Assembly (NCBI GenBank): GCA_903857825.1
Contig: CAIOGI010000010.1
Coordinates: 46,542 to 110,541 of the forward strand
Reading direction: 5' to 3'
DNA length: 64,000 nt
DNA from: Candidatus Tayloriibacteriota bacterium
GTDB lineage: Bacteria; Patescibacteriota; Minisyncoccia; Phycocordibacterales; PALSA-1337
Below are positions 833-35,798 of this stretch, piece by piece; the stretch's first letter is position 1; each line of letters begins with the position of its first letter. The translations under genes were made by a program, and so were the position numbers. A model generated the notes under the pieces. That model saw only the letters and a list, made by a program, of their open reading frames with translations, was not told the DNA's origin and did not search any database.

Positions 833-2242
833 TTACTTTTCCTCCTCCACTATCTCTATCCCCAATTCTTTCAATTGCTTATCCATTACCTTCCCTGGTG
901 CATTCATCATTGGATCTCTTCCTTCTCCGTTCTTTGGAAATGCTATTACTTCTCGAATATTCGGTTCTACTTCTAGGAAAGTCATAAGTCTATCAAATCC
1001 CCAAGCTATACCTCCGTGTGGTGGTGTGCCTGAACCTAGTGCATTTAACATGTGACCGAAGTTTCTTTCAATTCTCTCATCTTCATAACCCATGATTTTA
1101 AATACAGCCTTAAGAGCTTCTGGATTATGATTTCGTATACTTCCTCCACCGATTTCAGAACCATTGAGAACAATATCGTACTGAGTTGTAAAAATGTTCT
1201 CAATGTTCTTTTGATTCATCAAATCATCCATGAATTCTGGAGTAGGTGAAGAGAAAGGATTGTGTGTGAATGTCCAGCCTTTTGTATCAATATCCTTTTC
1301 AAAGAAAGGCCAGTCGATAACCCAAAGGAAAGCCAAAAGATCAGGATCATTCTTATCAGTACGAATATCAGGTTTATCAACACCATACTTTTCCATTACT
1401 TCTTTATAAGTCAATACTGGGAATGGAACTTGTTGAATCTTCTTGTTTGGATATAGAGTGGTAACAAGGTCTATAAGAATCTTTTCGTTTATCGCCATTA
1501 CATCTTTTCTTTCAACAAAACTCATTTCCATGTCCATTTGTGTGAACTCTGGCTGTCTATCACCGCGACTGTCCTCATCACGCATACATCTAGCAAATTG
1601 AAAATACTTTTCAAAGCCAGATGACATAAGAAGTTGTTTGTATTGCTGAGGACTCTGAGGAAGTGAATAGAATGAACCTCTCTCTAGACGAGAAGGAACA
1701 ATATAGTCTCTTGAACCTTCTGGTGTTGTAGCAGAAAGAAGTGGAGTTTCAATCTCGGTGAAGCCTTCTTTTGCTAAAGCATTTCTAACATGAAGCATGA
1801 CCTTGTGGCGATTTATAATATTCTTCTGAAGTCTAGGTCTTCTGAGATCCTGGTATCGATATTTTAGTCTCACCTCTTCATTAATTTCTTTTCCATCACC
1901 GCGAATATCAATAGGTGGAGTAGTGGCCTCATTTAGCACCTTGATTTCTAAAATCTCAAGCTCTATTTCCCCATTCTGCTTATCCTTCTGTACATTCTTT
2001 GGTGGTCGAGGATTTACTTTACCCTTAACGCAAACAACCCATTCTGGTCTTAGAGTAAAACCTACTTCATGAGCTGCTGTGGCATTTGGTAATATAACTC
2101 CTTGCACCTTTCCTGTGACATCGCGAAAATCAAGGAAAATAAGCTTTCCCTGATCTCGGCGAATATCAACCCAGCCTTTTATAGTTACTTCTTGTCCAAC
2201 TTTTGCACTTAAATCTTTAATATATGTTCTTTCCATGAACAT
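833..2242 (-). CDS. aspS: aspartate--tRNA ligase, compact form without the bacterial GAD insertion
   Basis: class II aaRS motifs: QSPQQYKQLLM, CMRDEDSRGDRQPEFTQMDMEMSF (AspRS-type motif 2), GGGSIRNHNPE; N-terminal OB anticodon-binding region; 469 aa. Confidence 0.85.
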   Translation of the reverse strand: MFMERTYIKDLSAKVGQEVTIKGWVDIRRDQGKLIFLDFRDVTGKVQGVILPNATAAHEVGFTLRPEWVVCVKGKVNPRPPKNVQKDKQNGEIELEILEIKVLNEATTPPIDIRGDGKEINEEVRLKYRYQDLRRPRLQKNIINRHKVMLHVRNALAKEGFTEIETPLLSATTPEGSRDYIVPSRLERGSFYSLPQSPQQYKQLLMSSGFEKYFQFARCMRDEDSRGDRQPEFTQMDMEMSFVERKDVMAINEKILIDLVTTLYPNKKIQQVPFPVLTYKEVMEKYGVDKPDIRTDKNDPDLLAFLWVIDWPFFEKDIDTKGWTFTHNPFSSPTPEFMDDLMNQKNIENIFTTQYDIVLNGSEIGGGSIRNHNPEALKAVFKIMGYEDERIERNFGHMLNALGSGTPPHGGIAWGFDRLMTFLEVEPNIREVIAFPKNGEGRDPMMNAPGKVMDKQLKELGIEIVEEEK

Positions 2243-2248
2243 ATCATA

Positions 2249-2479
2249 CTATATATCGAATTCATCTTCAAACTCGTCACTCATTTTTTCTACTGCCTTA
2301 TCTATATAGTGACTATTGTATTGTTTAAGCTCTGAAATATCAGCTCTTGCCTCATCTATATCTTCTTTCATATGGATGAGCTCAATTTTTACCTCTTGAA
2401 AACTCTCATTCATAATATCGACCTTTTTATCTATTCTTGCCAATGCCCCAAGCACAAAAGTATATTGTTCTTCTTGCAT
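2249..2479 (-). CDS. hypothetical small acidic coiled-coil protein
   Basis: ORF track; no motif recognised; sits between aspS and trpS on the same strand. Confidence 0.4.
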   Translation of the reverse strand: MQEEQYTFVLGALARIDKKVDIMNESFQEVKIELIHMKEDIDEARADISELKQYNSHYIDKAVEKMSDEFEDEFDI

Positions 2480-2588
2480 ATATAAATTACATTTTACAAA
2501 ATCCCTTTCGAGGATTTCTAATAATGTAGAAAGTATAGAAAAAAGTTATTAAGAAATTCTAAAGGAATTCTTAAGAAATGATAAAGAT

Positions 2589-3539
2589 TTAGTTTACGCC
2601 AATATTTTTCTTTACTGTCAAAAGCTTGGCATCAGCACGTGTCTTAGCTCGAGATGCTCCGTCTGCAAGAATGGCTTTAATTTCCTCAACATTTTTACTT
2701 AACTCTTCTCTCTTTTCTCTCAATGGTTTTATAAATGCGTCAAGGTCTTCTATAAGAGTTTCTTTCAATATTTTATACTTGCCCTTATTTTGATCATAAA
2801 TAGCCTTCAATTCCTCGTCTGAGCGTAGTAATTTATGAATGTTATATACATTTACCGGTGTCTCGCCACTTGAATCTGTGACAATGCTCATAACAGCTTT
2901 TGTTATTTCCTCTCGAGTAGCAAAAAGTGGAATTGTATTCTTATAACTCTTACTCATTTTCTGTCCATCTGTGCCGGGTACCACCGCAACCTCTTTCATT
3001 ATGAAAGGCTCAGGAAGTTTGAAAGTTTCTCCGAAGGTATTGTTGAACTTTTGAGCTGTATCGCGTGTATATTCTATGTGTTGTTTTTGATCCTGACCAA
3101 CTGGAACTGTGTCCACATCGTATAAGAGAATATCAGCAGCCATAAGCATAGGATAATTAAATGTACCAACACTAATCTCCTTATCCTTCGCTTCTGCGTC
3201 CTTGAAGGCATGCGCACGCATAAGGTAAGGCATGGTGGTGATAGTATCAAAGATCCAAGCTAGCTCAGTGTGTGCAGATACGTCTGACTGTTTAAAAATG
3301 GTTGAGGTTTTTGGATCAAGTCCAATGGCAAGATAATCCAAAATAAAATCTAAGGTATATTCGCGCATCTCCTTGGCGTTTTGAACAGTATTTAGAGCGT
3401 GATAATCAGCAATCATGAAGAAACAATCATACTTACCACTATTTTGTAATTCAACCATCTGTTTCATCGCACCAAAATAGTTTCCAATATGCAATTTACC
3501 TGATGGCTTTAATCCTGATAGTAATGTTTTTTTTGACAT
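2589..3539 (-). CDS. trpS: tryptophan--tRNA ligase
   Basis: class I HIGH-type motif GKLHIGN near N-terminus, GQDQKQH, KMSKS; 316 aa typical for TrpRS. Confidence 0.9.
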   Translation of the reverse strand: MSKKTLLSGLKPSGKLHIGNYFGAMKQMVELQNSGKYDCFFMIADYHALNTVQNAKEMREYTLDFILDYLAIGLDPKTSTIFKQSDVSAHTELAWIFDTITTMPYLMRAHAFKDAEAKDKEISVGTFNYPMLMAADILLYDVDTVPVGQDQKQHIEYTRDTAQKFNNTFGETFKLPEPFIMKEVAVVPGTDGQKMSKSYKNTIPLFATREEITKAVMSIVTDSSGETPVNVYNIHKLLRSDEELKAIYDQNKGKYKILKETLIEDLDAFIKPLREKREELSKNVEEIKAILADGASRAKTRADAKLLTVKKNIGVN

Positions 3540-3571
3540 GCATTAAATATAGCAGAAAAAGAAAAAGGGGG

Positions 3572-4453
3572 CTATAGCCCCTCCTTCTTCAATTCCTCAA
3601 TTAGTTTCTGGGCGGTTTTCGATACTTTCTTTGGCATTTCAACCTTTGTAACTATTAGCAAATCACCTCTCCGACCTCTTTCGTCCGGAACACCCTTTTG
3701 TCTAACTCTCAATATTTCATTATGCGTTGTTCCTGTTGGTATCTTCAATTCAATTTTTCCATCAAGTGTTTCAACATCCAATGTAGCTCCTAGTAGTGCC
3801 GTTGTAAGTTTGAGCTGTAATTCCATTACTATGTTGTAACCCTCTTTTCTAAATACAGAATGTTCCTCCACCCAGATACGCACAATGAGATCACCTTTTC
3901 CTCCAGGACCATCCTCGCCTTTTCCTTGAACTCTTAACCCCTGACCGTTCTCGATACCAGCAGGAATAGTAACGACTATTTTTTCTTTATTAATATTTAA
4001 TTCTTTCTCAAGTCCAAAAACTGATTCCTTGAAAGAGAGTTGCACATCTACAGTAATATTTGCTCCTCTACGAGGTCGTCTACCTCCTCCAAAAAAATCT
4101 CCGAATAGATCCCCAAGATCGAATTCAAAGCTTTGGCCTCCTCCTTGTGCTTGCTGTCTCGCAAATCCAGAAAAGTCGAAGCCACCGAATCCTTGACCTC
4201 CATTAAATCCATTGAAGCCACCTTGCCCACCACCGAAACCATTTGGTTCAGCTGGACCAAATGTATCGTACTGCTGTCGCTTCTGATCATCAGAAAGTGT
4301 TGTGTAAGCTTCGTTTATCTCTTTGAATTTCGCATCGTTTCCATTATTTTTGTCAGGATGATGTTCATGAGCAAGCTTTCTAAAAGCTTTCTTTATATCG
4401 TCTTTTGAAGCGCTCTTTTCAACGCCGAGTATTTTGTAATAGTCTTTTGACAT
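3572..4453 (-). CDS. dnaJ: J-domain chaperone of the DnaJ/CbpA class (J-domain, Gly/Phe-rich linker, C-terminal substrate-binding domains; no CxxCxGxG zinc finger)
   Basis: YYKILGV...HPDKN J-domain with HPD, long GGFGG/GF repeat linker, no cysteine repeats; 293 aa. Confidence 0.85.
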
Positions 4454-4486
4454 GGCTGTGATTATAGCAAAAATGAGGTTTTTTTG

Positions 4487-5233
4487 CTATTTCAACCCAT
4501 CAACATATTTTTCTGCAGACTTTAACACAGCTTCCAACATAAAATTCTCATAATCATCTTTACCTCCTCCAGTCTGAGCCTTTTCAAGTGATGTAACGTA
4601 AATCCTGCGATCTTCAGGATGAATGACTACTGGAGGATAATCGTTCTGCATTAGTATAAGGTTAAGCAATAGTCTAGCTGTTCTTCCATTGCCATCTGTA
4701 AACGGGTGTATGGAAACCAGGCGATAATGCGCTTCAATTGCTGTCAGCACAGGATGCTCAGTTGTTTTGCTAATCCATTTTACAAATTCTGTCATAAGAT
4801 CTGGTACTGAAGCTGGGTTTGGCATGATAGATGTAGAACCGGTAATGCGTACAGGTATTGTACGCAATCTTCCAGAGTTTACGTCGTCATTCTTTTGCAA
4901 AAGAATTCTATGTATATCGAGAATAACAGCCAGGGTAATATCACTTAGCTTTTTATTATTTTCAGCAAACTTTTTTATATATTCTACTGCTTCAGAATGA
5001 TTCTTTGCTTCTATAAGCTCTCTAAGTTGTTTACCTTCTATGCTTATATCCTTTTCTACTACTAAGGCTGTTTCTTGGCGAGATAGAGTGTTTCCTTCGA
5101 GAGCATTAGAAGTATAAGTAAGCTCAATACGATACCATTCATCTAGGTTCTTTACGAGTGCTGGGTCAATAATTCCATGACTAGCAATTTTTGCTTTAAT
5201 TTCATCGATTTTACTAAGTAATTCTTGTTTCAT
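4487..5233 (-). CDS. Fic family protein (canonical AMPylation motif)
   Basis: HPFTDGNGRTARLL matches Fic core HxFx(D/E)GNGRxxR; 248 aa. Confidence 0.85.
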   Translation of the reverse strand: MKQELLSKIDEIKAKIASHGIIDPALVKNLDEWYRIELTYTSNALEGNTLSRQETALVVEKDISIEGKQLRELIEAKNHSEAVEYIKKFAENNKKLSDITLAVILDIHRILLQKNDDVNSGRLRTIPVRITGSTSIMPNPASVPDLMTEFVKWISKTTEHPVLTAIEAHYRLVSIHPFTDGNGRTARLLLNLILMQNDYPPVVIHPEDRRIYVTSLEKAQTGGGKDDYENFMLEAVLKSAEKYVDGLK

Positions 5234-5323
5234 TTGACATTATCATAACAGATAAATGAAATTTAAATAACCCTTGACCTCATCGAGTATTTATGCTTAA
5301 ATAGAGTAAACAAGAACGGGGGG

Positions 5324-5572
5324 GTGATATGTTGTGATTACCCACTGTTCTTCACACAAACACACAACAAGAATTGGATTACCATGATAGCGTTTGGACT
5401 TTTAAACATCGGCTTCTCGATTATGGCTTTGGCCATATGTTTTGCGAATTTAGTGCGTAAATCGCAAGAACAGTTTGGGCCAATGCAAGTCGCATGTTTT
5501 GGTTTAACCTGCACAACTTTGTTACTGGTTTTGTGCAAGGGATGCTCAGTTGCGATGGATATTTGGCACTGA
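5324..5572 (+). CDS. GC-rich small Cys-rich hydrophobic ORF (62 aa from the internal ATG at 5384, 82 aa from the GTG at 5324); could instead be a structured ncRNA
   Basis: ORF track; two predicted hydrophobic helices, 8 Cys; about 47% GC in a roughly 30% GC context; followed immediately by a strong intrinsic terminator; no convincing RBS. Confidence 0.3.
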   Translation: MICCDYPLFFTQTHNKNWITMIAFGLLNIGFSIMALAICFANLVRKSQEQFGPMQVACFGLTCTTLLLVLCKGCSVAMDIWH

Positions 5573-5573
5573 C

Positions 5574-5617
5574 CGAAGTCGGCCCCCACTTACGTGGGAC
5601 AAGCCGGCTTCGTTTTT
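5574..5617 (+). terminator. intrinsic terminator (outer 8-9 bp stem cgaagtcg/ggcttcg enclosing inner stem cccac/gtggg, then T6)
   Basis: hairpin and T-run read directly from sequence. Confidence 0.6.
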
Positions 5618-5628
5618 TATATTTAGTA

Positions 5629-5883
5629 TTATGCATATTTTGCATAATACTCGTTTGTAATGTGCATTATTTGCACTTTCCTTTTGAACTTGTAGGGATT
5701 ACTTACAAGTTGAGTATGTTACAAATTGGAACTACCTTATACAAGTATTCCGGAATTTCCGGATAACTGCCGAACCGTTGCATTATTTGCAACAGTTGCC
5801 TGGGCCTCAACTTGTTCCAATATGGAAACAGTAGTAAAGGATTTCTTTACCACTCATCCAGTTGTTGCATTATTTGCAACAAC
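5629..5883. promoter_or_regulatory. array of four inverted repeats with core TGCA-N5-TGCA: ATGCA-tattt-TGCAT (5630-5644), GTGCA-ttatt-TGCAC (5661-5675), GTTGCA-ttatt-TGCAAC (5777-5793), GTTGTTGCA-ttatt-TGCAACAAC (5861-5883); operator-like
   Basis: read directly; the last site has perfect 9-bp arms; sites lie 110-370 bp upstream of the PemK/MazF-like gene; a TTGACA at 5926-5931 lies between the array and the gene. Confidence 0.5.
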
Positions 5884-5995
5884 TGAATCTTGCTAAAATA
5901 TATTCTATATGTTTGAATGCTGTTTTTTGACAAAATCTTTAGAACTTCTTAAGAACTTTTTGTTACATTATGCAAATTATTAGCATAATTTAAAT

Positions 5996-6385
5996 ATGAT
6001 GATTAAAAATTTTGATAAATGGAATAAAAACAAGAAGATTATTAATAACTCAAAAACATATCCACTGTATAATCAAAGAGAAATCTGGTGGTGTTCGCTC
6101 GGTGTAAATATTGGCTACGAACATGACGGGGACAAAGTAGAATATCAGAGGCCTGTACTTATATTGAAAGGTTTAAGTAAATATACGTGTTTTATAGTTC
6201 CTTTAACATCATCTTTACATAGGCATAAAATGAGAATCCCCTTAGGAATAATTAATGACAAAAGTGCTAGTGCTGTGATTTCTCAATTTCGAACTATTGA
6301 TACAAAGAGATTAACCGAGAAAATTTGCTATCTTGACGAAACTGTATTTGAATTAACGAGAAAAGCTACCAAAGACCTGCTCTGA
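5996..6385 (+). CDS. PemK/MazF-family toxin (endoribonuclease fold) with no adjacent protein antitoxin of 60 aa or more
   Basis: REIWWCSLGVNIGYEHDG...RPVLILKG...CFIVPLTS and C-terminal RTIDTKRL...ETVFELTRKATKDLL resemble PemK/Kid/MazF conserved blocks (RPxLVV, PRTID); 129 aa. Confidence 0.75.
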   Translation: MMIKNFDKWNKNKKIINNSKTYPLYNQREIWWCSLGVNIGYEHDGDKVEYQRPVLILKGLSKYTCFIVPLTSSLHRHKMRIPLGIINDKSASAVISQFRTIDTKRLTEKICYLDETVFELTRKATKDLL

Positions 6386-6525
6386 TAGCTTTTCCTCACT
6401 AATCCCCTCATTTAAGAGGTAAGCCCGAAGGCACTGTTTTTCTTTTCTCCCCTCTTTCGAGAGGCGTTTGCTCGCGTAGAGCATTTTATGACATTATATT
6501 ATCATATTTAACTCTAAACGCAACC

Positions 6526-8439
6526 CTACTTCTTTTCTTTGAATTCAGCATCCTTCACATCTCCCTCTGGTCCTTTTTGCTCGCCTGCTCCGCCTGTTGG
6601 ACCACCTGCTGGTGGTGTTTGCTTTGCTGCTTCAGCCTGAGCTTTTGATAGTATTTCACCTATCTTTGAAAGCTCACTTGAAAGTGCTTCTGTAGACTTC
6701 TTTAGTAAAGCTGGATCTGTTCCTTCCTTTGAAGTTTTTACATCAGCGATTTTGTCTTCAATGGACTTTCTCAAATCTGCTGGGACCTTGTCACCTGCGT
6801 CTTTCAATGATTTCTCTGAAGTATAGATGAGCTGCTCTGCAATATTCTTTGCTTCAATCATTTCTTTTTTCTTTGCATCTTCTACTGCATGCATTTCAGC
6901 TTCTTTTGTCATCTTTTCAACTTCTTCTTTTGAAAGACCTGAGCTTGCTGTGATCTTTATGCTATTTGTCTTTCCTGTTGTCTTATCCTTTGCAGTAACA
7001 GAAAGGATACCATTAGCATCTAGATCAAATGTAACCTCGACTTGTGGCATACCGCGAGGTGCAGGGGCAATACCATCAAGTATAAATCTACCTAGAGACT
7101 TATTATCACCTGACAATGGTCTTTCACCCTGAGTAATATGAATTTCTACGGATGTTTGATTGTCAGCTGCTGTAGAGAAGATTTGAGACTTCTGGGTAGG
7201 GATAGTAGTGTTCTTCTCAATGAGTTTTGTAGCAACTCCACCCATTGTTTCAATTCCTAGAGAAAGAGGAGTAACATCTAGTAGAAGTACGCCTTTTACG
7301 TCTCCTGCCAAGATACCTCCTTGAATAGCAGCACCCACCGCAACCACCTCGTCAGGATTTACACCAAGGTGCAACTCCTTTCCGAAGAAATCCTTCACAG
7401 CCTTTTGCATAGCCGGCATACGTGTCTGTCCTCCGACAAGAACAATCTCATTTATATCTGCAATCTTGAACGGAGAAGCTTCCATAGCTCTCTTGGTGAT
7501 TTCCATTGCACGATCAATGAACTCTTTTGTAAGTTCCTCAAGCTTTGCTCGAGTCATGGTAATAAGTAAGTGCTTTGGACCATCTGCGCCTGAAGTAAGG
7601 AATGGAATATTCACTTCTGTTTGAACTGCTGTTGAAAGCTCTATCTTTGCCTTTTCTGCTGCTTCATCTAGTCTCTGAAGTGCTAGTGCATCCTTTCTAA
7701 CATCAATTCCCTCTTGCTTCTTGAATTCATCTGCAAGCCAATTGATAATCTTCTGATCAATATCCTTTCCTCCAAGGTGTGCATCTCCGTCTGTAGACTT
7801 TACTTCCACTACATCATCTCCAACCTCTAGTACTGATATATCGAATGTTCCTCCACCGAAGTCAAAGACTACTATTTTCTCGTCCTTTTTCTTGTCGAAT
7901 CCATAAGCCAATGCTGCTGCCGTTGGCTCATTTATAATTCTTTTTACATCTAGTCCCGCTATCTTTCCTGCATCTTTTGTTGCTTGTCTTTGTGCATCGT
8001 TGAAGTATGCGGGTACAGTAATAACTGCCTCTGTGACTGGTTCTCCAAGACGTGACTCCGCATCAGCCTTTAGTTTTCCAATGATCATTGCTGAGATCTC
8101 CTCTGGTCTATACCATTTATCTCCCATCTTTACTTCTATTCCTCCTGATGCAGACTTTTGCATTTCGAAAGGTACAGAAGCTCTATCCTTTTGTACTGCA
8201 GGATCATCGAAGTTGTGACCGATGAATCTCTTGATCTGATAAATAGTATTCTTTGGATTTGTAACTCCTTGTCTCTTGGCTAATAGACCCACCATTCTAT
8301 CGCCTGTTTTTGATTGCGCGATAATAGACGGTGTGGTTCTAGCACCTTCTGCGTTTTCTAATATTTTAGGTGTACCAGCTTCCATCACAGCGACGGCAGA
8401 GTTGGTAGTACCTAGGTCGATTCCTATAATTTTGGACAT
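6526..8439 (-). CDS. dnaK: molecular chaperone DnaK (Hsp70)
   Basis: [22 protein letters not shown], full-length Hsp70 architecture, 637 aa. Confidence 0.97.
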
Positions 8440-8493
8440 GGTTAATTATTTGATTAATTTAGTAATTTTGCTATTGTTATCTTGAAGGAGGTG

Positions 8494-8499
8494 ATTATA
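8494..8499 (-). promoter_or_regulatory. candidate -10 box TATAAT for dnaK (minus strand), about 55 nt upstream of the dnaK ATG; same bases form an apparent GGAGGTGA SD on the plus strand
   Basis: minus-strand reading ...gtgattcaTATAATcacctcc...; a weak -35-like tgactg lies 15-18 bp upstream. Confidence 0.35.
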
Positions 8500-8618
8500 T
8501 GAATCACTGGACATCAGTCAGTTGGGCGCTACCTGTTGTGGCGCGCTACATGGTCGGAGCCATGCTTGGGCGAGGAAACCAGTCTGGGAGTACTCGCCCT
8601 TTATATTTATACTATTAG
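8499..8618 (+). other. GC-rich (about 55% GC) island upstream of the dnaK promoter: 39-aa ORF (MNHWTSVSWALPVVARYMVGAMLGRGNQSGSTRPLYLYY) with an apparent perfect SD GGAGGTGA; alternatively a structured regulatory element
   Basis: ORF hand-translated; 7-bp inverted repeat gggcgag(8568-8574)/ctcgccc(8593-8599); direct repeat ggcgctac x2; the apparent SD is the reverse complement of the putative dnaK -10, so the ORF may be fortuitous. Confidence 0.25.
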
Positions 8619-8917
8619 ACTACAAATGCCGGAGCTCTTGTTGGTTGACTCATAAAAAATTCTAATAAAAAGTAAGGTGAAAGTATTGATTCAAATTCAG
8701 CAAAGCTGGTTTCAATAATAACTTTACTTTCTTTAATGCATGGCAAGCAAATAACATCCTCAGCTGGCACTACGAACGGAATAGCGGAAATGATCTGAGC
8801 TTGGAATTTGCCATTTACTTCAACAACGGTAAAACGAATACGAACTAAAAGCCCGTTCTTGTCCTTAACAATTCTTTCAAAGATGCTATTAAGTTGTTTA
8901 TTTTGAAGGGATAGCAT
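8615..8917 (-). CDS. hypothetical protein, last gene of the HEPN/MNT operon
   Basis: ORF track; same strand and 25 bp downstream of the MNT gene; no motif recognised. Confidence 0.4.
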   Translation of the reverse strand: MLSLQNKQLNSIFERIVKDKNGLLVRIRFTVVEVNGKFQAQIISAIPFVVPAEDVICLPCIKESKVIIETSFAEFESILSPYFLLEFFMSQPTRAPAFVV

Positions 8918-8942
8918 ATTAATTAAGATATTATATTAAACT

Positions 8943-9257
8943 TTATTTATTATTCAAGTTTTTATAAAACAATTTTCCTTCTTCATCTATATGCTTCTTT
9001 AATTCAATATTTGAAATACTATTATAATCAAGAACATCAACTTTATATGGGAACCTTGGTGCATTATCAAGCATATTTCTAAAATCTGATGCTGTGTTTG
9101 TATTTAATATTCCTTTTAAGGCAATATCTATATCTGATGCAGGTTTATAATTTCCCATTGCTCTTGAACCAAAGATAATAAGTTCGTCAACATCTGGAAA
9201 GACTTGAACATATCTTGAAATAATTTCTAAAATATCATCATTTAATCCAAATTTCAT
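8943..9257 (-). CDS. minimal nucleotidyltransferase (MNT, HI0073-like) antitoxin-type protein
   Basis: Pol-beta-type NTase motif ...LIIFGSRAMGNYKPASDIDIAL... (GS-x9-DxD); 104 aa; start overlaps upstream HEPN gene by 4 bp. Confidence 0.8.
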   Translation of the reverse strand: MKFGLNDDILEIISRYVQVFPDVDELIIFGSRAMGNYKPASDIDIALKGILNTNTASDFRNMLDNAPRFPYKVDVLDYNSISNIELKKHIDEEGKLFYKNLNNK

Positions 9258-9652
9258 AGTGATTTCTTGAAATATACATAAAGATCAGCAAAAATCTTTG
9301 CGTACGATTCTCTAATTAGCTTCTCGGCCTTTATACTAAGTATTTCATCATAAATATGAGATAATTCGTTTCTCTTATCTAGTGCTTCTAACCACATTTC
9401 TCCATTTTCAATATAGCCTGTTTGTAAAGCTTGCTTAAGCGTATCGCGTGGAGTTTTTAATATAAATCCTTCAAATTCTAGTTTATCATTCATTGTTTTC
9501 CAGGATAATTCAAAAAGAAATTCAAATGTCTGAATTAGCGCAGCACGAAACAAGTCATCGTTTGTTGTATCTTGTTTTAGAGCTCTTAAAAATTGAGAAT
9601 ATGCTTTCTCAAAATTTGAAAATCTTTGTTTCCATCTTTTTTCATTTTTCAT
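9254..9652 (-). CDS. HEPN-domain protein of the HI0074 / nucleotidyltransferase-substrate-binding family (toxin-type partner of MNT)
   Basis: RNELSHIYD fits the HEPN Rx4-6H motif; 132 aa all-helical; ATGA 4-bp overlap with the MNT gene. Confidence 0.75.
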   Translation of the reverse strand: MKNEKRWKQRFSNFEKAYSQFLRALKQDTTNDDLFRAALIQTFEFLFELSWKTMNDKLEFEGFILKTPRDTLKQALQTGYIENGEMWLEALDKRNELSHIYDEILSIKAEKLIRESYAKIFADLYVYFKKSL

Positions 9653-9846
9653 ATCAATACTTTATTATAATTATTAGCTGGTAATACGTGCATAAATACT
9701 GCTTTATCTTGACACGTTTTTTTCTTTAAACTAATAAGAGACCCAGATGATGCAAGAATTTTTTTATAATCAATAGACAAAGCTACCCATTTATTTTCAT
9801 GAGATTTATTAATTAGGCTTAGATTTGGTGCTTTTACTAGTTCCAT
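9649..9846 (-). CDS. small hypothetical protein (65 aa), first gene of the HEPN/MNT operon
   Basis: ORF track; 4-bp overlap with HEPN gene start; family not recognised. Confidence 0.4.
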   Translation of the reverse strand: MELVKAPNLSLINKSHENKWVALSIDYKKILASSGSLISLKKKTCQDKAVFMHVLPANNYNKVLI

Positions 9847-9904
9847 GATGTTATATTATACTATTTTTCAAGTAATTTCAAGCCAAGTATGCTACACTTA
9901 CCTT

Positions 9905-10195
9905 ATGGAAAGCCTTATTCATGCAGACATATTCTTCTTCGTAACAACAGTTATTGTTATTATGCTTGGAATCATACTTGTAGTCATCCTTATCTACATT
10001 GCCATTATACTTGCTGATATTCGTGCAATATCACGTATCGCAAGATCTGAGAGTGCTGATATAGCAGATGATATACATATGATTCGAAGTGAAGTGCAAT
10101 CTGAACTTAGAAGAGGATCATCTGTTATCGCTTCCCTAGTGCGGGTTATTCGTGGTCTCTTTCGTCGAAGAAAGTCACGAATTAATAAAGGTTAA
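9905..10195 (+). CDS. small single-pass membrane protein (listed ORF starts at 9845; ATG at 9905 preferred)
   Basis: one strongly hydrophobic helix (FFFVTTVIVIMLGIILVVILIYIAIIL) then a charged helical tail. Confidence 0.4.
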   Translation: MESLIHADIFFFVTTVIVIMLGIILVVILIYIAIILADIRAISRIARSESADIADDIHMIRSEVQSELRRGSSVIASLVRVIRGLFRRRKSRINKG

Positions 10196-10247
10196 TTCTC
10201 TATTTAATATGAAAAAAGTAAATATAAAGGAAGCGGGAGGTCACAAG

Positions 10248-10580
10248 ATGGCCTTGGGTGTAGGTATTGCTGCAGCAGTAGCGGCTGCTGCAGGTGCATA
10301 CTTTCTGTATGGTTCAGCAAAAGGACCAGCTAGAAGAAAAGCAATCAAGACTTGGTCTATCAAGATGAAAGCAGAAGTAATGGAAGAAGTAGAAAAAATG
10401 CAGGATATAAGTGAGGAAGTATATCATTCAGCGATAGATAAGGTATCAAAGAAATATGCAGACATGAAAGGAATAGATGTAAAGGAGCTGGAGACTACGG
10501 TAAAGCAATTAAAGGGACATTGGAAGGATATAAAGAAGGAAGCGGAGAAGGCAATAAAGAAAGGAGCGAAGCTGGTCTAA
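10248..10580 (+). CDS. YtxH-like small membrane-anchored protein (Gly/Ala-rich TM helix plus coiled coil)
   Basis: MALGVGIAAAVAAAAGAYFLYGSAKGPARRK... resembles the YtxH N-terminus; strong SD gggagg 7 nt before the ATG at 10248 (listed ORF begins at 10152). Confidence 0.55.
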   Translation: MALGVGIAAAVAAAAGAYFLYGSAKGPARRKAIKTWSIKMKAEVMEEVEKMQDISEEVYHSAIDKVSKKYADMKGIDVKELETTVKQLKGHWKDIKKEAEKAIKKGAKLV

Positions 10581-10628
10581 ATATATATGTGCGACAAAAA
10601 ACAAGGCCTTATAATGAGGCTTTTGTTT

Positions 10629-11489
10629 TTACTTATCACTTTTCTTAACAAAATCCTTAGCGAAATTTACCAGATATGTGTATGAAGACTCTGACTCAGC
10701 TATAAATTCTTTTATCTTGTTGAATCTCAAGTCTAAATACTCATGCGCTAAGATGTTTCTAATTTTAGCAAATCTACCTAGAACTTTTGCTTTTTCAAGA
10801 TCAAATCCATTTACTTCAATTAAATTTTCTAATATCGATTTATAAGTATTTGGAATAAGCTTCTTTTCTGAAGCTAAAATAATCTTTGATATGTCGACAC
10901 TTGAATTTACAATATTTTCTACCCACCTTTCCATACTTCTTTTTACATCTCTATCTGTTTGATATTTTATTTGATCCACCTTTTTAAATTTTGAGAAATC
11001 TTTAATTTCTTGTTCTAAAAATTCCACGATCTTTATTAGTCTTTCCTTGTCTGTAAGGCTGAGTGAATTTGACCTCTCTTTGATTTTAATAAAATCATCC
11101 ATATAATCTCTATAATATTCTGCAGCTTCATTTATTACATTTGAAAATCTAGCAAAATATTTAGGGTCTTTCATTATAAGCAATTTCCCATCATTTATGA
11201 TTGAATCGGCAAGGGTTGAAGAAGCCCTATTGAGAACAACCATATCTGTTTTTATTTCAAGAATTTTCTCAATCTCAGACCAAAGCTCATCCTCGCCTTT
11301 ATATGATTTCTCTTCCTCATATTCAACGTCACTAGTCGTTGGCTTAAAATATACAGCAATATCAATATCTGACTCTCTATGCGTCATATCTTTTGCGTAA
11401 GAACCAAAGAGAAAAGCAGCTAGGACATTGTCTTGGGTCTCTAGAAATACTTTTAATTTATCTAGTTTTTCTAGGATTTCTTTGCTCAT
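10629..11489 (-). CDS. fused nucleotidyltransferase (MNT) + HEPN (DUF86/HepT-like) protein
   Basis: N-terminus LFGSYAKDMTHRESDIDIAV (NTase GS...DxD); C-terminus RNILAHEY (HEPN Rx4HxY); 286 aa. Confidence 0.75.
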   Translation of the reverse strand: MSKEILEKLDKLKVFLETQDNVLAAFLFGSYAKDMTHRESDIDIAVYFKPTTSDVEYEEEKSYKGEDELWSEIEKILEIKTDMVVLNRASSTLADSIINDGKLLIMKDPKYFARFSNVINEAAEYYRDYMDDFIKIKERSNSLSLTDKERLIKIVEFLEQEIKDFSKFKKVDQIKYQTDRDVKRSMERWVENIVNSSVDISKIILASEKKLIPNTYKSILENLIEVNGFDLEKAKVLGRFAKIRNILAHEYLDLRFNKIKEFIAESESSYTYLVNFAKDFVKKSDK

Positions 11490-11558
11490 AGTGTAATTCT
11501 ATCGTAATATCATTGTGCATAATAGCTTGACAAGTACTAAATACAGTGTATTATTTAA

Positions 11559-11783
11559 ATGTCAGAGTTCCAAGCAAAATACAATATCATGAAAAGAACA
11601 TTCGCTAATGTCCTACAAGAAGCCAAAGACAAGGGTGCAAAAGTGACAATTTGGTACGTTGCGGGTACGGGGTTGGATTATAGCAATACAATGGAGGTTG
11701 CCGAGGTCGGTAAGGATTTCTTCTCCTCCACTGAGGGTGTCTACATTCCATTCACGGCCATTGCACGCTTATATGTGATGTAA
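11559..11783 (+). CDS. hypothetical small protein (74 aa)
   Basis: ORF track only; no motif. Confidence 0.3.
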   Translation: MSEFQAKYNIMKRTFANVLQEAKDKGAKVTIWYVAGTGLDYSNTMEVAEVGKDFFSSTEGVYIPFTAIARLYVM

Positions 11784-11869
11784 AACTGTACAGGCTAGGT
11801 AACGATGCCTAATAACGAATTTTCGTTACTCGAGGGTGTGCCACATAGTGTGACCGCCTTTTCTTTTAC

Positions 11870-12460
11870 TCAATTTTTATTTCCTCCACCCCCCACCTTC
11901 ACCTTCGGTGCCTTTAGAACCTTACCGTTAAGCTCATATCCTTTTTGTATAACAGTCGTGACCGTATTATTTTTACTTTCATCATCCACCGGTTCATGCT
12001 CTATAGCCTCATCTCTCATTGGATCAAAAGGCTTGCCAGTAGGATCAATTTCTTTCAAACCAAATTCACCTAGAACCTTACTTAGTTGATTAGCTATATA
12101 CTCAACTCCCACTCTCCAATTCTTATCTACCTTTTCCCATACATCTTTATTCCCCATTGCCATATTGAAACTATCTAGAACAGGAATAAGCTCAGAAATT
12201 AAACTTTCATTTGAAAAACGAGCAAAGTCCTTTTGAGCTTCTTGATCTCTTCGGCGAGCATTCACAAATTCAGCCTTATCCTTTTGCCAATTATTAAGAT
12301 ACTCCTGCTTTTCTTCAGTAACTTTCTTTAGCTTTTCTTTTAGGCTTTTTATAACATCAAGACCAGTTTCTTCCTCAACTATTTCATCGACTTCCTTGTC
12401 CACTTCAGTATCTGGCTCTATCACTACATCATCACCATTTGTATTTTTATCTTTATTCAT
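11870..12460 (-). CDS. grpE: nucleotide exchange factor GrpE
   Basis: acidic N-terminus, long coiled coil, C-terminal ...FDPMRDEAIEHEP...VIQKGYELNGKVLKAPKVKV typical of GrpE. Confidence 0.9.
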   Translation of the reverse strand: MNKDKNTNGDDVVIEPDTEVDKEVDEIVEEETGLDVIKSLKEKLKKVTEEKQEYLNNWQKDKAEFVNARRRDQEAQKDFARFSNESLISELIPVLDSFNMAMGNKDVWEKVDKNWRVGVEYIANQLSKVLGEFGLKEIDPTGKPFDPMRDEAIEHEPVDDESKNNTVTTVIQKGYELNGKVLKAPKVKVGGGGNKN

Positions 12461-34688: not shown

Positions 34689-35753
34689 TTAACTTTTTGC
34701 AATAACCGCATAATTCTTTGCAGCAAAAATATATTGCTCTATAAATATCTTTTTAAACGAGATTAAAGAATTTAATTCGTAAAATACTAATATCGCTTCT
34801 TTGTACTCATTCTCATCGACACTACGATATGATAGTGGAGCAAATCCATGAGCAAGTAAAATTGAATTCGCTATCAATCTTGAAGTTCTTTTATTTCCAT
34901 CCTCGAATGGCTGAATGTAACTCAAACCAAGTAACATTACTAAGGCCTTTGAATATGGAGACTTCATTTTATTCACTATCTCACAGAGTGTTTCAATAGC
35001 TTCTTTTATTTGATGAATATTATCAAGTGGTCTATATATGGAACCTGTAACTCCAACAGCTTTATTACGAAGACCATGATCAATATTTAAGTCCTTTATC
35101 AAAATTTTATGTATTTCTTCTATTACTGACAATTTAATATTCATAAATTCATGAATATTTTCTCTTATTTTTTTAAATGCATACTTATGATTAAGAATCA
35201 TCGAAGCCTCAAGCTTATTATGACCCTCTGCTTCTATGCCCTTACTTATAAGTTTCTCAGTGTCTAATAATGTATATGTATTTCCTTCTATTTTTGAAGA
35301 TTTCCATGATAGTTCAATAATAAATCTCTCTAGCTCTTTCTCCTCGAGTGTATTTGAAATCGACTTTATATTATTTTTATATATTTCTGTAGCTTTATTT
35401 AATTCATCTATTTCAAAGTCTAGAAAAATATCCTCATTGATATGGTTAAATAAATCAAAATTATAGCTCTTTAGACCAATTCGTTTATCTGGTTCAATAT
35501 TACAATATTCATGAGCATTAAGATTCGAATATATCCTACCCTTTGTACTTATTGAATACACAATTGACCGACCTGCACCAGATAATGCTAAGAGATTGAG
35601 TGATTTTAATTCAGTCAATTCACGCTTGACTGTAACAAGCGAAACTTCACTTTTACTTTCAAGTAGTTTGTTGTAAACATCAGACGAAGACAACTCTTCA
35701 TTATTAAGAAAAAAACTCAATATTATTTGTTGATTTTGAGCAATTTTTATCAT
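34689..35753 (-). CDS. Fic family protein with N-terminal winged-HTH-like region and a degenerate Fic motif (QPFEDGNKRTSRL: Gln replaces the catalytic His, Lys replaces the second Gly)
   Basis: motif read from translation; start preferred at MIKIAQ (35753) because the operator palindrome would otherwise lie inside the longer ORF-track coding region (to 35786). Confidence 0.7.
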   Translation of the reverse strand: MIKIAQNQQIILSFFLNNEELSSSDVYNKLLESKSEVSLVTVKRELTELKSLNLLALSGAGRSIVYSISTKGRIYSNLNAHEYCNIEPDKRIGLKSYNFDLFNHINEDIFLDFEIDELNKATEIYKNNIKSISNTLEEKELERFIIELSWKSSKIEGNTYTLLDTEKLISKGIEAEGHNKLEASMILNHKYAFKKIRENIHEFMNIKLSVIEEIHKILIKDLNIDHGLRNKAVGVTGSIYRPLDNIHQIKEAIETLCEIVNKMKSPYSKALVMLLGLSYIQPFEDGNKRTSRLIANSILLAHGFAPLSYRSVDENEYKEAILVFYELNSLISFKKIFIEQYIFAAKNYAVIAKS

Positions 35754-35798
35754 AATCGTATCATTTAATACTCTTAATCGTATCAAAATGATACGATT
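35754..35798. promoter_or_regulatory. operator-like element: perfect palindrome AATCGTATCA-aaa-TGATACGATT (35776-35798) plus an extra half-site AATCGTATCA (35754-35763) abutting the Fic start codon
   Basis: read directly; 10-bp arms; lies between the Fic gene start and the ychF stop. Confidence 0.55.

Follow-up and report, generated by a model that had tools for sequence, protein, structure and literature searches.

Accessory-gene cargo between grpE, dnaK and dnaJ marks a probable gene-transfer hotspot in a Candidatus Tayloriibacteriota bacterium

In a bacterium assigned to Candidatus Tayloriibacteriota, the chaperone genes grpE, dnaK and dnaJ are held apart by blocks of other genes. All three lie in a 64,000-nucleotide stretch of contig CAIOGI010000010.1 (assembly GCA_903857825.1, positions 46,542 to 110,541 of the forward strand), referred to here as the window. 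A preliminary description of this DNA had placed the three genes on the minus strand and reported that they are split by a 3.4-kb and a ~2-kb block of toxin or defense genes. Open reading frames (ORFs) and Pfam matches confirm the chaperone genes at the positions it gave, and the gaps measure 3430 bp from grpE to dnaK and 2072 bp from dnaK to dnaJ. The observation was correct, and the interpretation attached to it is half right. Comparison with related genomes indicates that the locus is probably a gene-transfer hotspot of a known kind, in which slots between conserved core genes are filled with a mosaic of cargo. What looks like an invaded chaperone operon would be ordinary accessory-gene storage in small, highly syntenic genomes that offer few permissive gaps.

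A DnaK scan of species-representative genomes yielded 80 loci, all from Patescibacteria and many of them labelled Candidatus Taylorbacteria or Paceibacterota, with DnaK identity running from 97% down to 75%. Window proteins were mapped onto these relative loci, which carry handles of the form L001, by tblastn. Inspection of the alignments reveals a backbone that is conserved across relatives and reads rpoA-rplQ-rplM-rpsI / grpE / hyp100-dnaK / dnaJ / trpS(-aspS), where rpsI encodes S9 and hyp100 a conserved 100-aa protein. The distances between backbone genes differ markedly from one junction to another:

Junctions inside the ribosomal block: at most 171 bp in 52 loci, medians 2-28 bp
Junction S9/grpE: -8 to 2124 bp, median 306 bp
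Junction grpE/dnaK: 341 to 9165 bp, median 1008 bp
Junction dnaK/dnaJ: 10 to 4430 bp, median 510 bp
Junction dnaJ/trpS: 14 to 5933 bp, median 454 bp

The grpE/hyp100 and hyp100/dnaK junctions vary too, from ~10 bp to several kb and with unrelated cargo, and fully compact grpE-hyp100-dnaK-dnaJ-trpS arrays with gaps of 20-114 bp are found in L068 and L074. Clustering by similarity sorted the 291 ORFs in the gaps of the 80 species loci into 218 clusters. This highly heterogeneous cargo includes enolase, iPGM, efflux pumps and surface proteins besides toxin-antitoxin genes. Conserved core genes bound intervals whose contents differ among related genomes, which places the locus among the hotspots of horizontal gene transfer (HGT). 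Variability is a property of every boundary between transcription units here, and the chaperone locus is not unique in this respect.

Oliveira et al. (2017) found that a few intervals between core genes concentrate gene turnover, that many of these hotspots lack mobile-element genes, and that such hotspots show frequent recombination at the flanking core genes (PMC5635113). The locus resembles those hotspots in that its cargo differs between related genomes and is flanked by core genes. It departs from them in that species of an uncultured clade with small genomes are compared here, whereas theirs was a comparison between strains, and in that the intervals break up genes which many other bacteria keep in one operon. 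The locus provides a worked example of a hotspot in the uncultured Patescibacteria, where such analyses are scarce, with its parts dated as core, old resident or recent cassette. Those parts, from dnaJ to grpE, are the following:

3572-4453, minus strand: dnaJ, 293 aa, with a J domain and DnaJ_C in Pfam, and a G/F region
4487-5233, minus strand: Fic gene, 248 aa, Pfam Fic at 7e-24, with its stop 33 bp before dnaJ
5234-5369, no strand assigned: divergent promoter region between Fic and the plus-strand cargo, kept in the relative L173
5312-5620, plus strand: orphan element rich in GC (0.447), promoter-like at its start and closed by a terminator-like hairpin and T-run at ~5573-5618
5620-5995, plus strand: hairpin-rich non-coding stretch of 375 nt with seven near-perfect hairpins, RNA fold z=-7.8
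5996-6445, plus strand: PemK/MazF-like toxin gene (5996-6385, 129 aa) and its terminator (6386-6445)
6526-8439, minus strand: dnaK, 637 aa, HSP70 in Pfam at E=2e-244
8615-8917, minus strand: hyp100, the conserved 100-aa protein, directly 5' of dnaK clade-wide
8943-9257, minus strand: MNT, Pfam Polbeta at 3e-14, with GS...DxD; PADLOC PDC-S09 for the cassette
9254-9652, minus strand: HEPN, Pfam NTase_sub_bind at 8e-31, with RNELSHIY (Rx4HxY)
9649-9846, minus strand: hyp65, 65 aa, first gene of the three-gene cassette
9905-10195, plus strand: single-pass membrane protein, start taken from database gene calls
10209-10580, plus strand: YtxH-like protein, weak Pfam YtxH match (18.6 bits versus a cut-off of 37.5), start taken from database gene calls
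10629-11489, minus strand: fused MNT-HepT, 286 aa, Polbeta at 2e-20 (residues 11-109) and HepT-like at 4e-13 (residues 159-266)
11559-11783, plus strand: hyp74, orphan 74-aa ORF, GC3 0.51 (z=4.3 versus the rest of the window)
11870-12460, minus strand: grpE, 196 aa, PF01025 (GrpE) at E=1e-38, directly 3' of the rpoA-rplQ-rplM-rpsI block

Read from grpE, the 3430-bp gap holds hyp74, the fused MNT-HepT, the YtxH-like gene, the membrane protein, hyp65-HEPN-MNT and hyp100. Read from dnaK, the 2072-bp gap holds the solo PemK/MazF-like gene, ~760 bp without a convincing gene (5234-5995), and Fic. The preliminary description had named most of these genes, and its fused MNT-HepT, HEPN/MNT pair, PemK and Fic are real, whereas its YtxH assignment rests on the weak match above. 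It had also read every gene as lying on the minus strand, which fails for PemK, the YtxH-like gene, the membrane protein and the 74-aa ORF, all on the plus strand. Its view of both blocks as toxin/antitoxin-like is mostly borne out, except that hyp100 is a core gene and Fic a predicted self-inhibited class II enzyme.

The nearest species (L001, DnaK 97%) aligns with the window through every core gene at 80-86% nucleotide identity and lacks exactly window positions 4475-6525 and 8904-11891, that is to say both islands; a ClpP-like ORF fills its dnaK/dnaJ gap. At matching positions, a metagenomic relative, L173 (DnaK 91%, GrpE 83%, S9 76%), has counterparts of the YtxH-like gene (86%), of the membrane gene (81%) and of Fic (79%) as well as of the 136 nt 5' of Fic, and the nucleotide alignment from window position 4487 (74.8% identity) ends at 5369. 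HEPN-MNT, MNT-HepT and PemK are all absent from L173. Relative to it, the window has MNT-HepT and hyp74 as extras in the 45-nt grpE/YtxH spacer and hyp65-HEPN-MNT in the ~57-nt membrane-gene/hyp100 spacer, and positions 5370-6436 (orphan element, hairpins and PemK) replace a 563-nt segment with an unrelated 137-aa ORF. In the membrane-gene/hyp100 spacer, where the window has HEPN-MNT, PemK is found in L009 and unrelated ORFs are found in L006 and L024, whereas L002, L019 and L173 have no cargo there. The YtxH/membrane pair occupies the same slot in the same orientation in L002, L006, L009, L019, L024 and L173, at 58-86% identity.

Homologues of the HEPN-MNT cassette are scattered. The closest relatives of HEPN (80, 67 and 63% identical), each with an MNT partner, lie at three unrelated loci, namely H+-PPase/nusA, PD-(D/E)XK/large ORF and murB/secA. 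The distant L084/L085 (DnaK 75%) carries a compact grpE-HEPN-MNT-hyp-dnaK-Fic-dnaJ array with overlapping stops and starts, in which HEPN and MNT are 57% identical to those of the window. This array may be long established or may reflect a second insertion into one hotspot, and the closer homologues elsewhere favor mobility. Base composition agrees with parts of mixed age: the GC contents of MNT (0.257) and hyp65 (0.273) fall under those of all 51 genes outside the region (minimum 0.283), hyp74 has a high GC3, and Fic, hyp100 and the YtxH/membrane pair are typical of the window. Judged from these comparisons, hyp100 is core, the YtxH/membrane pair and Fic with its divergent promoter appear to be older residents passed down within the lineage, and HEPN-MNT, the fused MNT-HepT and the solo PemK look like mobile cassettes. 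Instead of two single islands, as first described, each block appears to be a mosaic of core gene, older residents and younger cassettes.

Cargo is not distributed evenly among the junctions. Among gap ORFs of at least 85 aa classified with Pfam, toxin-like ORFs make up 15 of 138 at the two dnaK-flanking junctions versus none of 68 at S9/grpE and dnaJ/trpS (Fisher test, p=0.002, uncorrected for shared ancestry). Toxin-like cargo at grpE/dnaK consists of PemK, HepT, MNT, NYN and Schlafen-type genes and at dnaK/dnaJ of Fic, PemK and YafQ; the S9/grpE and dnaJ/trpS junctions carry efflux pumps, PPK2 and similar genes. The chaperone locus is in part special, then, in that its cargo content differs, while variability itself is not chaperone-specific. 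Plausibly, the enrichment on the dnaK side arises because dnaK is the best-conserved DNA and thus the best arm for recombination-mediated exchange. The earlier proposal of a preferred integration site is supported in a broader form, in which all transcription-unit boundaries here are variable and toxin-like cargo nevertheless concentrates by dnaK. The accompanying suggestion that the toxins are tied to proteotoxic stress is unsupported for HEPN-MNT and PemK, whose closest homologues lie at unrelated loci, and is possible for Fic only.

How the hotspot came to be filled can be outlined from these observations. A promoter of its own is probable for each chaperone gene, and accessory genes would find permissive slots in the short spacers that separate the three. 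Starting from an L173-like arrangement, at least three separate cassette events would be required: entry of the fused MNT-HepT and hyp74 into the grpE/YtxH spacer, of hyp65-HEPN-MNT into the membrane-gene/hyp100 spacer, and of PemK with ~700 bp of orphan structured DNA into the dnaK/Fic spacer. The cassettes appear to be small self-contained modules with intact catalytic motifs; by homology, the HEPN RNases would be kept off through MNT AMPylation, and PemK would have an endoribonuclease fold. Since no integrase, tRNA or flanking repeat accompanies them, gain or replacement would most likely proceed by DNA uptake and then homologous recombination in the conserved core genes on either side. Of these, dnaK would serve best as a homology arm, being the most conserved gene of the neighborhood in nucleotides (78-87% to relatives versus mostly 65-82% for flanking genes). 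Insertion would be tolerated because no chaperone gene is cut off from its promoter-proximal DNA.

Several points weigh against this account. The separate promoters are predicted from consensus matches, which are not strongly enriched (42 found versus 31 expected). The gene order of L084, with its overlapping stops and starts, fits an old organized array better than chance re-insertion. A neutral model in which any permissive gap is filled predicts neither the toxin enrichment by dnaK nor the restriction of Fido genes such as Fic, among variable junctions, to dnaK/dnaJ. Finally, few genomes inform the direction of each event (gain here versus loss in relatives).

Other explanations were weighed against the hotspot reading. 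An assembly or binning artefact, with foreign fragments wrongly joined into the chaperone locus, is extremely improbable: the genome is metagenome-derived and some cassettes have atypical GC, but the identical DnaK appears in 43 indexed blocks of the collection searched, and the 12 contigs that were read, up to 91 kb long and from at least two European Nucleotide Archive (ENA) assembly records, all have the same gene order, which makes an artefact unlikely. The borders, moreover, coincide exactly with gene ends, and the backbone is collinear elsewhere. A classical integrative island, brought in site-specifically by mobile elements able to recognize a sequence near dnaK, is improbable as well. 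A genuine integrative element does occupy the same slot in L011, where an 8.4-kb insert in grpE/hyp100 (1275-8223) encodes a 531-aa large serine recombinase together with a Schlafen/AlbA_2-HATPase protein, a decarboxylase, a methyltransferase and a MerR-like protein, and the complementary ends of 5620-5995 are reminiscent of a miniature inverted-repeat transposable element (MITE). In the window, however, Pfam reveals no recombinase domain in the island ORFs, no integrase or transposase flanks the cassettes, and ARAGORN detects no tRNA or tmRNA. Searches for direct or inverted repeats at the borders of every cassette returned only chance-level matches of 14-27 nt, in keeping with the earlier remark that no integration scars were visible, and the integrase with flanking repeats or tRNA target that characterizes a site-specific island was not found. 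The insertion points also differ, with three separate spacers used across island 1 and island 2, and the hairpin motif has no second copy in the 64 kb.

An old, fixed chaperone-plus-toxin supra-operon, in which HEPN-MNT, Fic and other toxins would be ancestral, co-regulated and lost by most relatives, is quite improbable. Its best case is L084/L085, where the genes of the array overlap or lie close together and where HEPN, MNT and Fic are 57-62% identical to those of the window, a level similar to that of S9, L13 and L17 (50-53%). The preliminary description had named relatives with the same interrupted arrangement as the sign of an old organization; the distant L084 array is such a relative, whereas the nearest species, L001, has neither island. 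HEPN-MNT is present in none of the 80 nearest species loci, its closer homologues (63-80%) are the ones at unrelated loci, MNT and hyp65 are outlying in GC, and neither MNT-HepT nor PemK has positional orthologues. The homologue comparisons also hint already that cassette trees would disagree with the species tree.

The recurrent FICD-like Fic beside dnaK and dnaJ is the only feature of the locus that could prove new biology. Its catalytic loop, HPFTDGNGRTAR, fits HxFx(D/E)GNGRxxR, and a cis inhibitory motif, TSNALEGN at residues 41-48, aligns with TVAIEGN of FICD; the protein starts 35 residues before the inhibitory helix. Because loop and inhibitory motif are both invariant in 23 homologues, Fic is predicted to be a class II enzyme that inhibits itself, as opposed to a toxin paired with its own antitoxin. 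Human FICD is the best match among all solved structures (7.6e-37, residues 6-223), with C. elegans FIC-1 second. Matches to bacterial Fic structures reach 9e-27 for BtFic and ~1e-5 over ~80 residues for SoFic, so that FICD stands ahead of the former and far ahead of the latter. PADLOC assigns Fic to its SoFic model (1e-31, PDC-S04). SoFic is a single-gene anti-phage system whose C-terminal domain is reported to be critical for toxicity (PMC12249575). The window protein shares its AMP-transferase core, but the PADLOC match spans model positions 58-269 of 361, the C-terminal domain is missing, and dnaJ rather than a small AS1-like gene follows 3'. Fic is the sole Pfam match of the protein, in which neither a TPR domain nor a C-terminal domain was found. 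No conserved Fic partner gene emerged from ten neighboring small ORFs of Fic loci, which have no Pfam family.

The human enzyme AMPylates and deAMPylates the Hsp70 BiP (PMC4739761, PMC8373988), which it binds through its TPR domain (PMC8065156, PMC8373988). A FICD-like Fic might likewise be kept by dnaK/dnaJ because it AMPylates and deAMPylates DnaK, or DnaJ, a reading that we consider less likely than not and that is compatible with the hotspot model for the remaining genes. Like FICD (HYPE), the window Fic combines the catalytic loop with a cis inhibitory glutamate helix and is encoded beside an Hsp70 gene. Unlike FICD, it has 248 aa and no TPR domain or membrane anchor, and its synteny with dnaK is confined to some Paceibacteria. 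Genomic contexts were compared for eight proteins of the subfamily besides that of the window, at an identity of at least 56%. Five of the eight are encoded directly 3' of dnaK (L173/L174, L084/L085, L166, L167 and L168); counted by context, these five proteins account for six of nine loci. In four of the five dnaK-linked lineages Fic ends 12-91 bp before dnaJ, and in L173/L174 miaA follows, not dnaJ. Two more Fido architectures share the dnaK/dnaJ slot, RhuM-Fic in L007, L010, L019, L050 and L061 and winged helix-turn-helix (wHTH)-Fic in L018. Seven of the eight Fido ORFs in 1.37 Mb of loci fall in the dnaK/dnaJ gap, which is 4% of the sequence, and Fido ORFs number 5 of 58 in dnaK/dnaJ versus 0 of 148 at other variable junctions (p=0.0016, or 0.02 if the ORFs are collapsed to three independent types). 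DnaK also offers a candidate site, Thr488 in loop L7,8, which we take, by residue count, to be the equivalent of BiP Thr518.

Much of the comparative evidence runs against such a coupling. The three other subfamily members, close homologues at 79-80% identity, all lie between rpoC and dnaG, and none of 80 broader homologues from a metagenome scan with the Fic alignment (37-54% identity, among the matches listed) has a chaperone gene (DnaK, DnaJ or GrpE) within 6 kb. In approximately 64 of 70 related species the slot contains no Fido gene, and the domain by which FICD binds BiP is missing from the window protein (PMC8065156, PMC8373988). The RhuM-Fic proteins have a Doc-like GNKR loop and the L018 wHTH-Fic has Q instead of the catalytic His, so that the three architectures probably differ in chemistry. 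Identity among the Fic proteins is flat (56-69%) and incongruent with the core genes: L084 and L168 share 92% of DnaK and 63% of Fic. Thr or Ser stands at DnaK position 488 in nearly all relatives, with or without Fic, and the residue was rejected as a discriminator for that reason. Likewise, dnaJ retains its conserved TGCTATAAT element irrespective of Fic. No report of DnaK AMPylation was found in the literature searched. Co-orientation of Fic with dnaK and dnaJ was discarded as evidence of linkage, nearly all genes of the genome being on one strand.

The stronger form of the idea, that this small TPR-less FICD-like subfamily in Paceibacteria is a dedicated Hsp70 regulator that reversibly AMPylates DnaK (candidate Thr488) or DnaJ, is rather unlikely; if it held, retention beside dnaK/dnaJ would reflect that function. 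In a weaker version, it is possible that unrelated Fido enzymes converge on the dnaK/dnaJ slot through an activity tied to the chaperone cycle. For most class II Fic proteins of bacteria the physiological target is not known, and FICD, which controls an Hsp70, is to our knowledge the only well-understood member. A Fic that regulates DnaK would give the FICD-BiP switch its first counterpart in bacteria and might show where that switch evolved from.

The window holds a second Fic gene (34689-35786, minus strand), which encodes 365 aa with an N-terminal winged-helix (FUR-like) region and lies next to ychF. It is an orthologue or close homologue of the L018 Fic found in the dnaK/dnaJ slot. Its position by ychF here versus the dnaK/dnaJ slot in L018 implies that Fic genes move between junctions. 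The rpoC/dnaG interval is another variable slot in related genomes. In L081 (6519-7098) it holds Fic alongside a methyltransferase and a PemK module of two genes, and in L169 (1123-5410) a copper-resistance cluster.

Turning to the grpE-dnaK interval, neighboring genes of the hyp65-HEPN-MNT cassette (9846-8943, minus strand) overlap by 4 bp. Its products carry the motif pair of a two-gene system, GSx(9-13)DxD in MNT and Rx4-6H with an adjacent Tyr in HEPN (FGSRAMGNYKPASDIDIAL; RNELSHIY), and the cassette is a predicted type VII-like HEPN-MNT toxin-antitoxin module. In type VII HepT/MntA systems, the RNase motif adjoins a tyrosine that MNT AMPylates (PMC7641770, PMC11586414, PMC13000451). The window module resembles these in its overlapping MNT and HEPN genes and in its GS...DxD and Rx4HxY motifs, the latter with an acceptor tyrosine. 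It differs in that its HEPN is of the HI0074/NTase_sub_bind type and is encoded 5' of MNT, with the extra 65-aa gene ahead.

The fused MNT-HepT unites a GSYAKD...DIDIAV nucleotidyltransferase motif (FGSYAKDMTHRESDIDIAV) with an RNILAHEY (Rx4HxY) RNase motif. In the fused MNT-HEPN protein FhepTA, two HEPN-domain cysteines form a redox switch (PMC13000451). Like FhepTA, the window protein is one polypeptide with an N-terminal MNT and a C-terminal HepT domain. In contrast to FhepTA, its 286-aa translation contains no cysteine, and the redox switch therefore cannot apply. No related locus holds an orthologue, and in L018 the same slot is taken by an unfused MNT and HepT pair that matches the fused protein weakly. 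No homologue of the adjoining hyp74 turned up in the related loci. Its ATG lies 5 nt past the end of a near-consensus promoter, TTGACA-16-TATTAT (11527-11554), a spacing that implies a leaderless transcript. A terminator-like site is present at 10603-10623 near the YtxH-like gene.

In the dnaK-dnaJ interval, the PemK domain scores 46 bits versus a cut-off of 23 (PF02452 at 5e-12), and matches to MazF/EndoA structures in the PDB are weak (~1e-3). No ORF abuts its start, and upstream ORFs of at least 25 aa had no family match where tested; that is to say, no PemK antitoxin was found among them. The module including its terminator is 70% identical in nucleotides to L019:18166-18620, which lies at a different locus beyond aspS and is also solo. 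The gene resembles type II MazF/PemK systems in its PemK_toxin domain and its weak matches to solved MazF/EndoA structures. It departs from them in that the window and L019 copies lack an upstream antitoxin gene, and in that the window PemK has a 30-residue N-terminal extension and the 375-nt hairpin-rich stretch ahead of it. The terminator (6386-6445, versus 18567-18620 in L019) is kept at two different genomic locations, and its first hairpin has an apparent compensatory change, CCTC/GAGG versus TCTC/GAGA, as judged by eye from the two sequences.

The orphan GC-rich element at 5312-5620 had been described as a GC-rich small gene. A TTGACC-18 nt-TAAATA sequence can be read at about 5274-5305, and the element holds a possible 62-aa two-helix hydrophobic ORF (5384-5572). 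A search of 1.84 billion representatives returned no real homologue of this ORF, its three matches all being to long repetitive proteins, and the related loci returned nothing, which leaves it an orphan and its reading as a protein gene unsupported. As a known RNA the element fared no better: Rfam matches at E up to 10 on 5200-6000 were at chance level only, ARAGORN found no tRNA or tmRNA, and an impression of tmRNA-like GGGGG...CCCCC pairing was not borne out. It folds more stably than shuffled versions (z=-3.7), and only its terminator (5572-5625) is shared, the last ~50 nt recurring 3' of dnaK in L002. The element may encode a small membrane protein or a new RNA.

The adjacent 5620-5995 stretch carries the loop motif GCA-(U)UAUU-UGC in four of its seven hairpins. 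The 13-mer TGCATTATTTGCA has three exact copies in the window, all in this stretch and on the plus strand only, and 16 matches at up to two mismatches versus 5.0 expected; one exact match in L029 is the sole occurrence of the hairpin motif in other loci. The two ends of the stretch are mutually complementary (repeats D9, I19 and I20). The stretch may serve PemK as a structured leader or may be the decayed remnant of an element akin to a MITE. A type III system made up of the hairpin array and PemK was rejected, as the spacing is irregular (31, 116 and 87 nt) with one 18-nt exact pair and the array is not conserved 5' of the L019 PemK.

The chaperone genes themselves were compared with the canonical Firmicutes-type operon, hrcA-grpE-dnaK-dnaJ with a CIRCE operator. 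The window shares the order grpE, dnaK, dnaJ on one strand. It differs in having rpsI instead of hrcA ahead, no CIRCE, the extra hyp100, and cargo between the genes. Directly 5' of grpE, rpsI stands in the window and in 51 relatives, and a search for CIRCE (TTAGCACTC-N9-GAGTGCTAA) with up to three mismatches gave no match in the 64 kb. No Rfam family was detected in the whole window at gathering thresholds. The earlier statement that the three genes are contiguous in most bacteria was an overstatement; in E. coli, grpE is located away from dnaK and dnaJ.

Consensus matches place promoter-like sites ahead of grpE, hyp100, dnaK, Fic and dnaJ. The site before dnaK is CTGACT-16-TATAAT (8494-8521). 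For dnaJ, the extended -10-like TGCTATAAT at 4461-4469 constitutes a promoter-like element of its own, and the 21 nt 5' of its ATG are conserved in relatives both with and without Fic. The dnaJ leader is very short, similar to that of hyp74. The terminator scan detected a hairpin at 3568-3581 that overlaps the dnaJ stop codon. Pfam finds no zinc-finger domain in this DnaJ, and the dnaJ position of related genomes holds either the short type or a 365-373-aa zinc-finger DnaJ (L084, L166 and L168).

Strand bias in the window is extreme, with ~58 of 67 ORFs on the minus strand and tightly packed, and the plus-strand genes cluster in the variable regions at 5.3-11.8 kb and 32.9-38.1 kb. In the neighboring dnaJ/trpS slot, eight relatives (L003, L008, L010, L013, L020, L053, L056 and L067) carry a ~5-kb pair of HlyD-like and AcrB-like efflux genes as conserved non-toxin cargo. 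Divergent from dnaK, a 39-aa ORF (8499-8618, plus strand) with a strong GGAGG Shine-Dalgarno sequence overlaps the end of hyp100, and small hydrophobic ORFs divergent from dnaK can be read in the same spacer of several relatives.

Finally, hyp100 constitutes a second small lead. It was found 5' of dnaK in 58 of the 80 loci by tblastn, with nine more divergent copies detected by phmmer, and belongs to the clade's core genes, not to the island cargo. It has no Pfam or PADLOC match, and Foldseek against the PDB gave nothing below E=0.1. Its structure model has an N-terminal three-strand beta meander (pLDDT about 90) and a low-confidence C-terminal tail. None of 111 homologues has a Pfam domain, and the C-terminal QPTRAP is invariant among them. 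This unannotated protein, encoded 5' of dnaK clade-wide, could be a clade-specific DnaK-associated factor.

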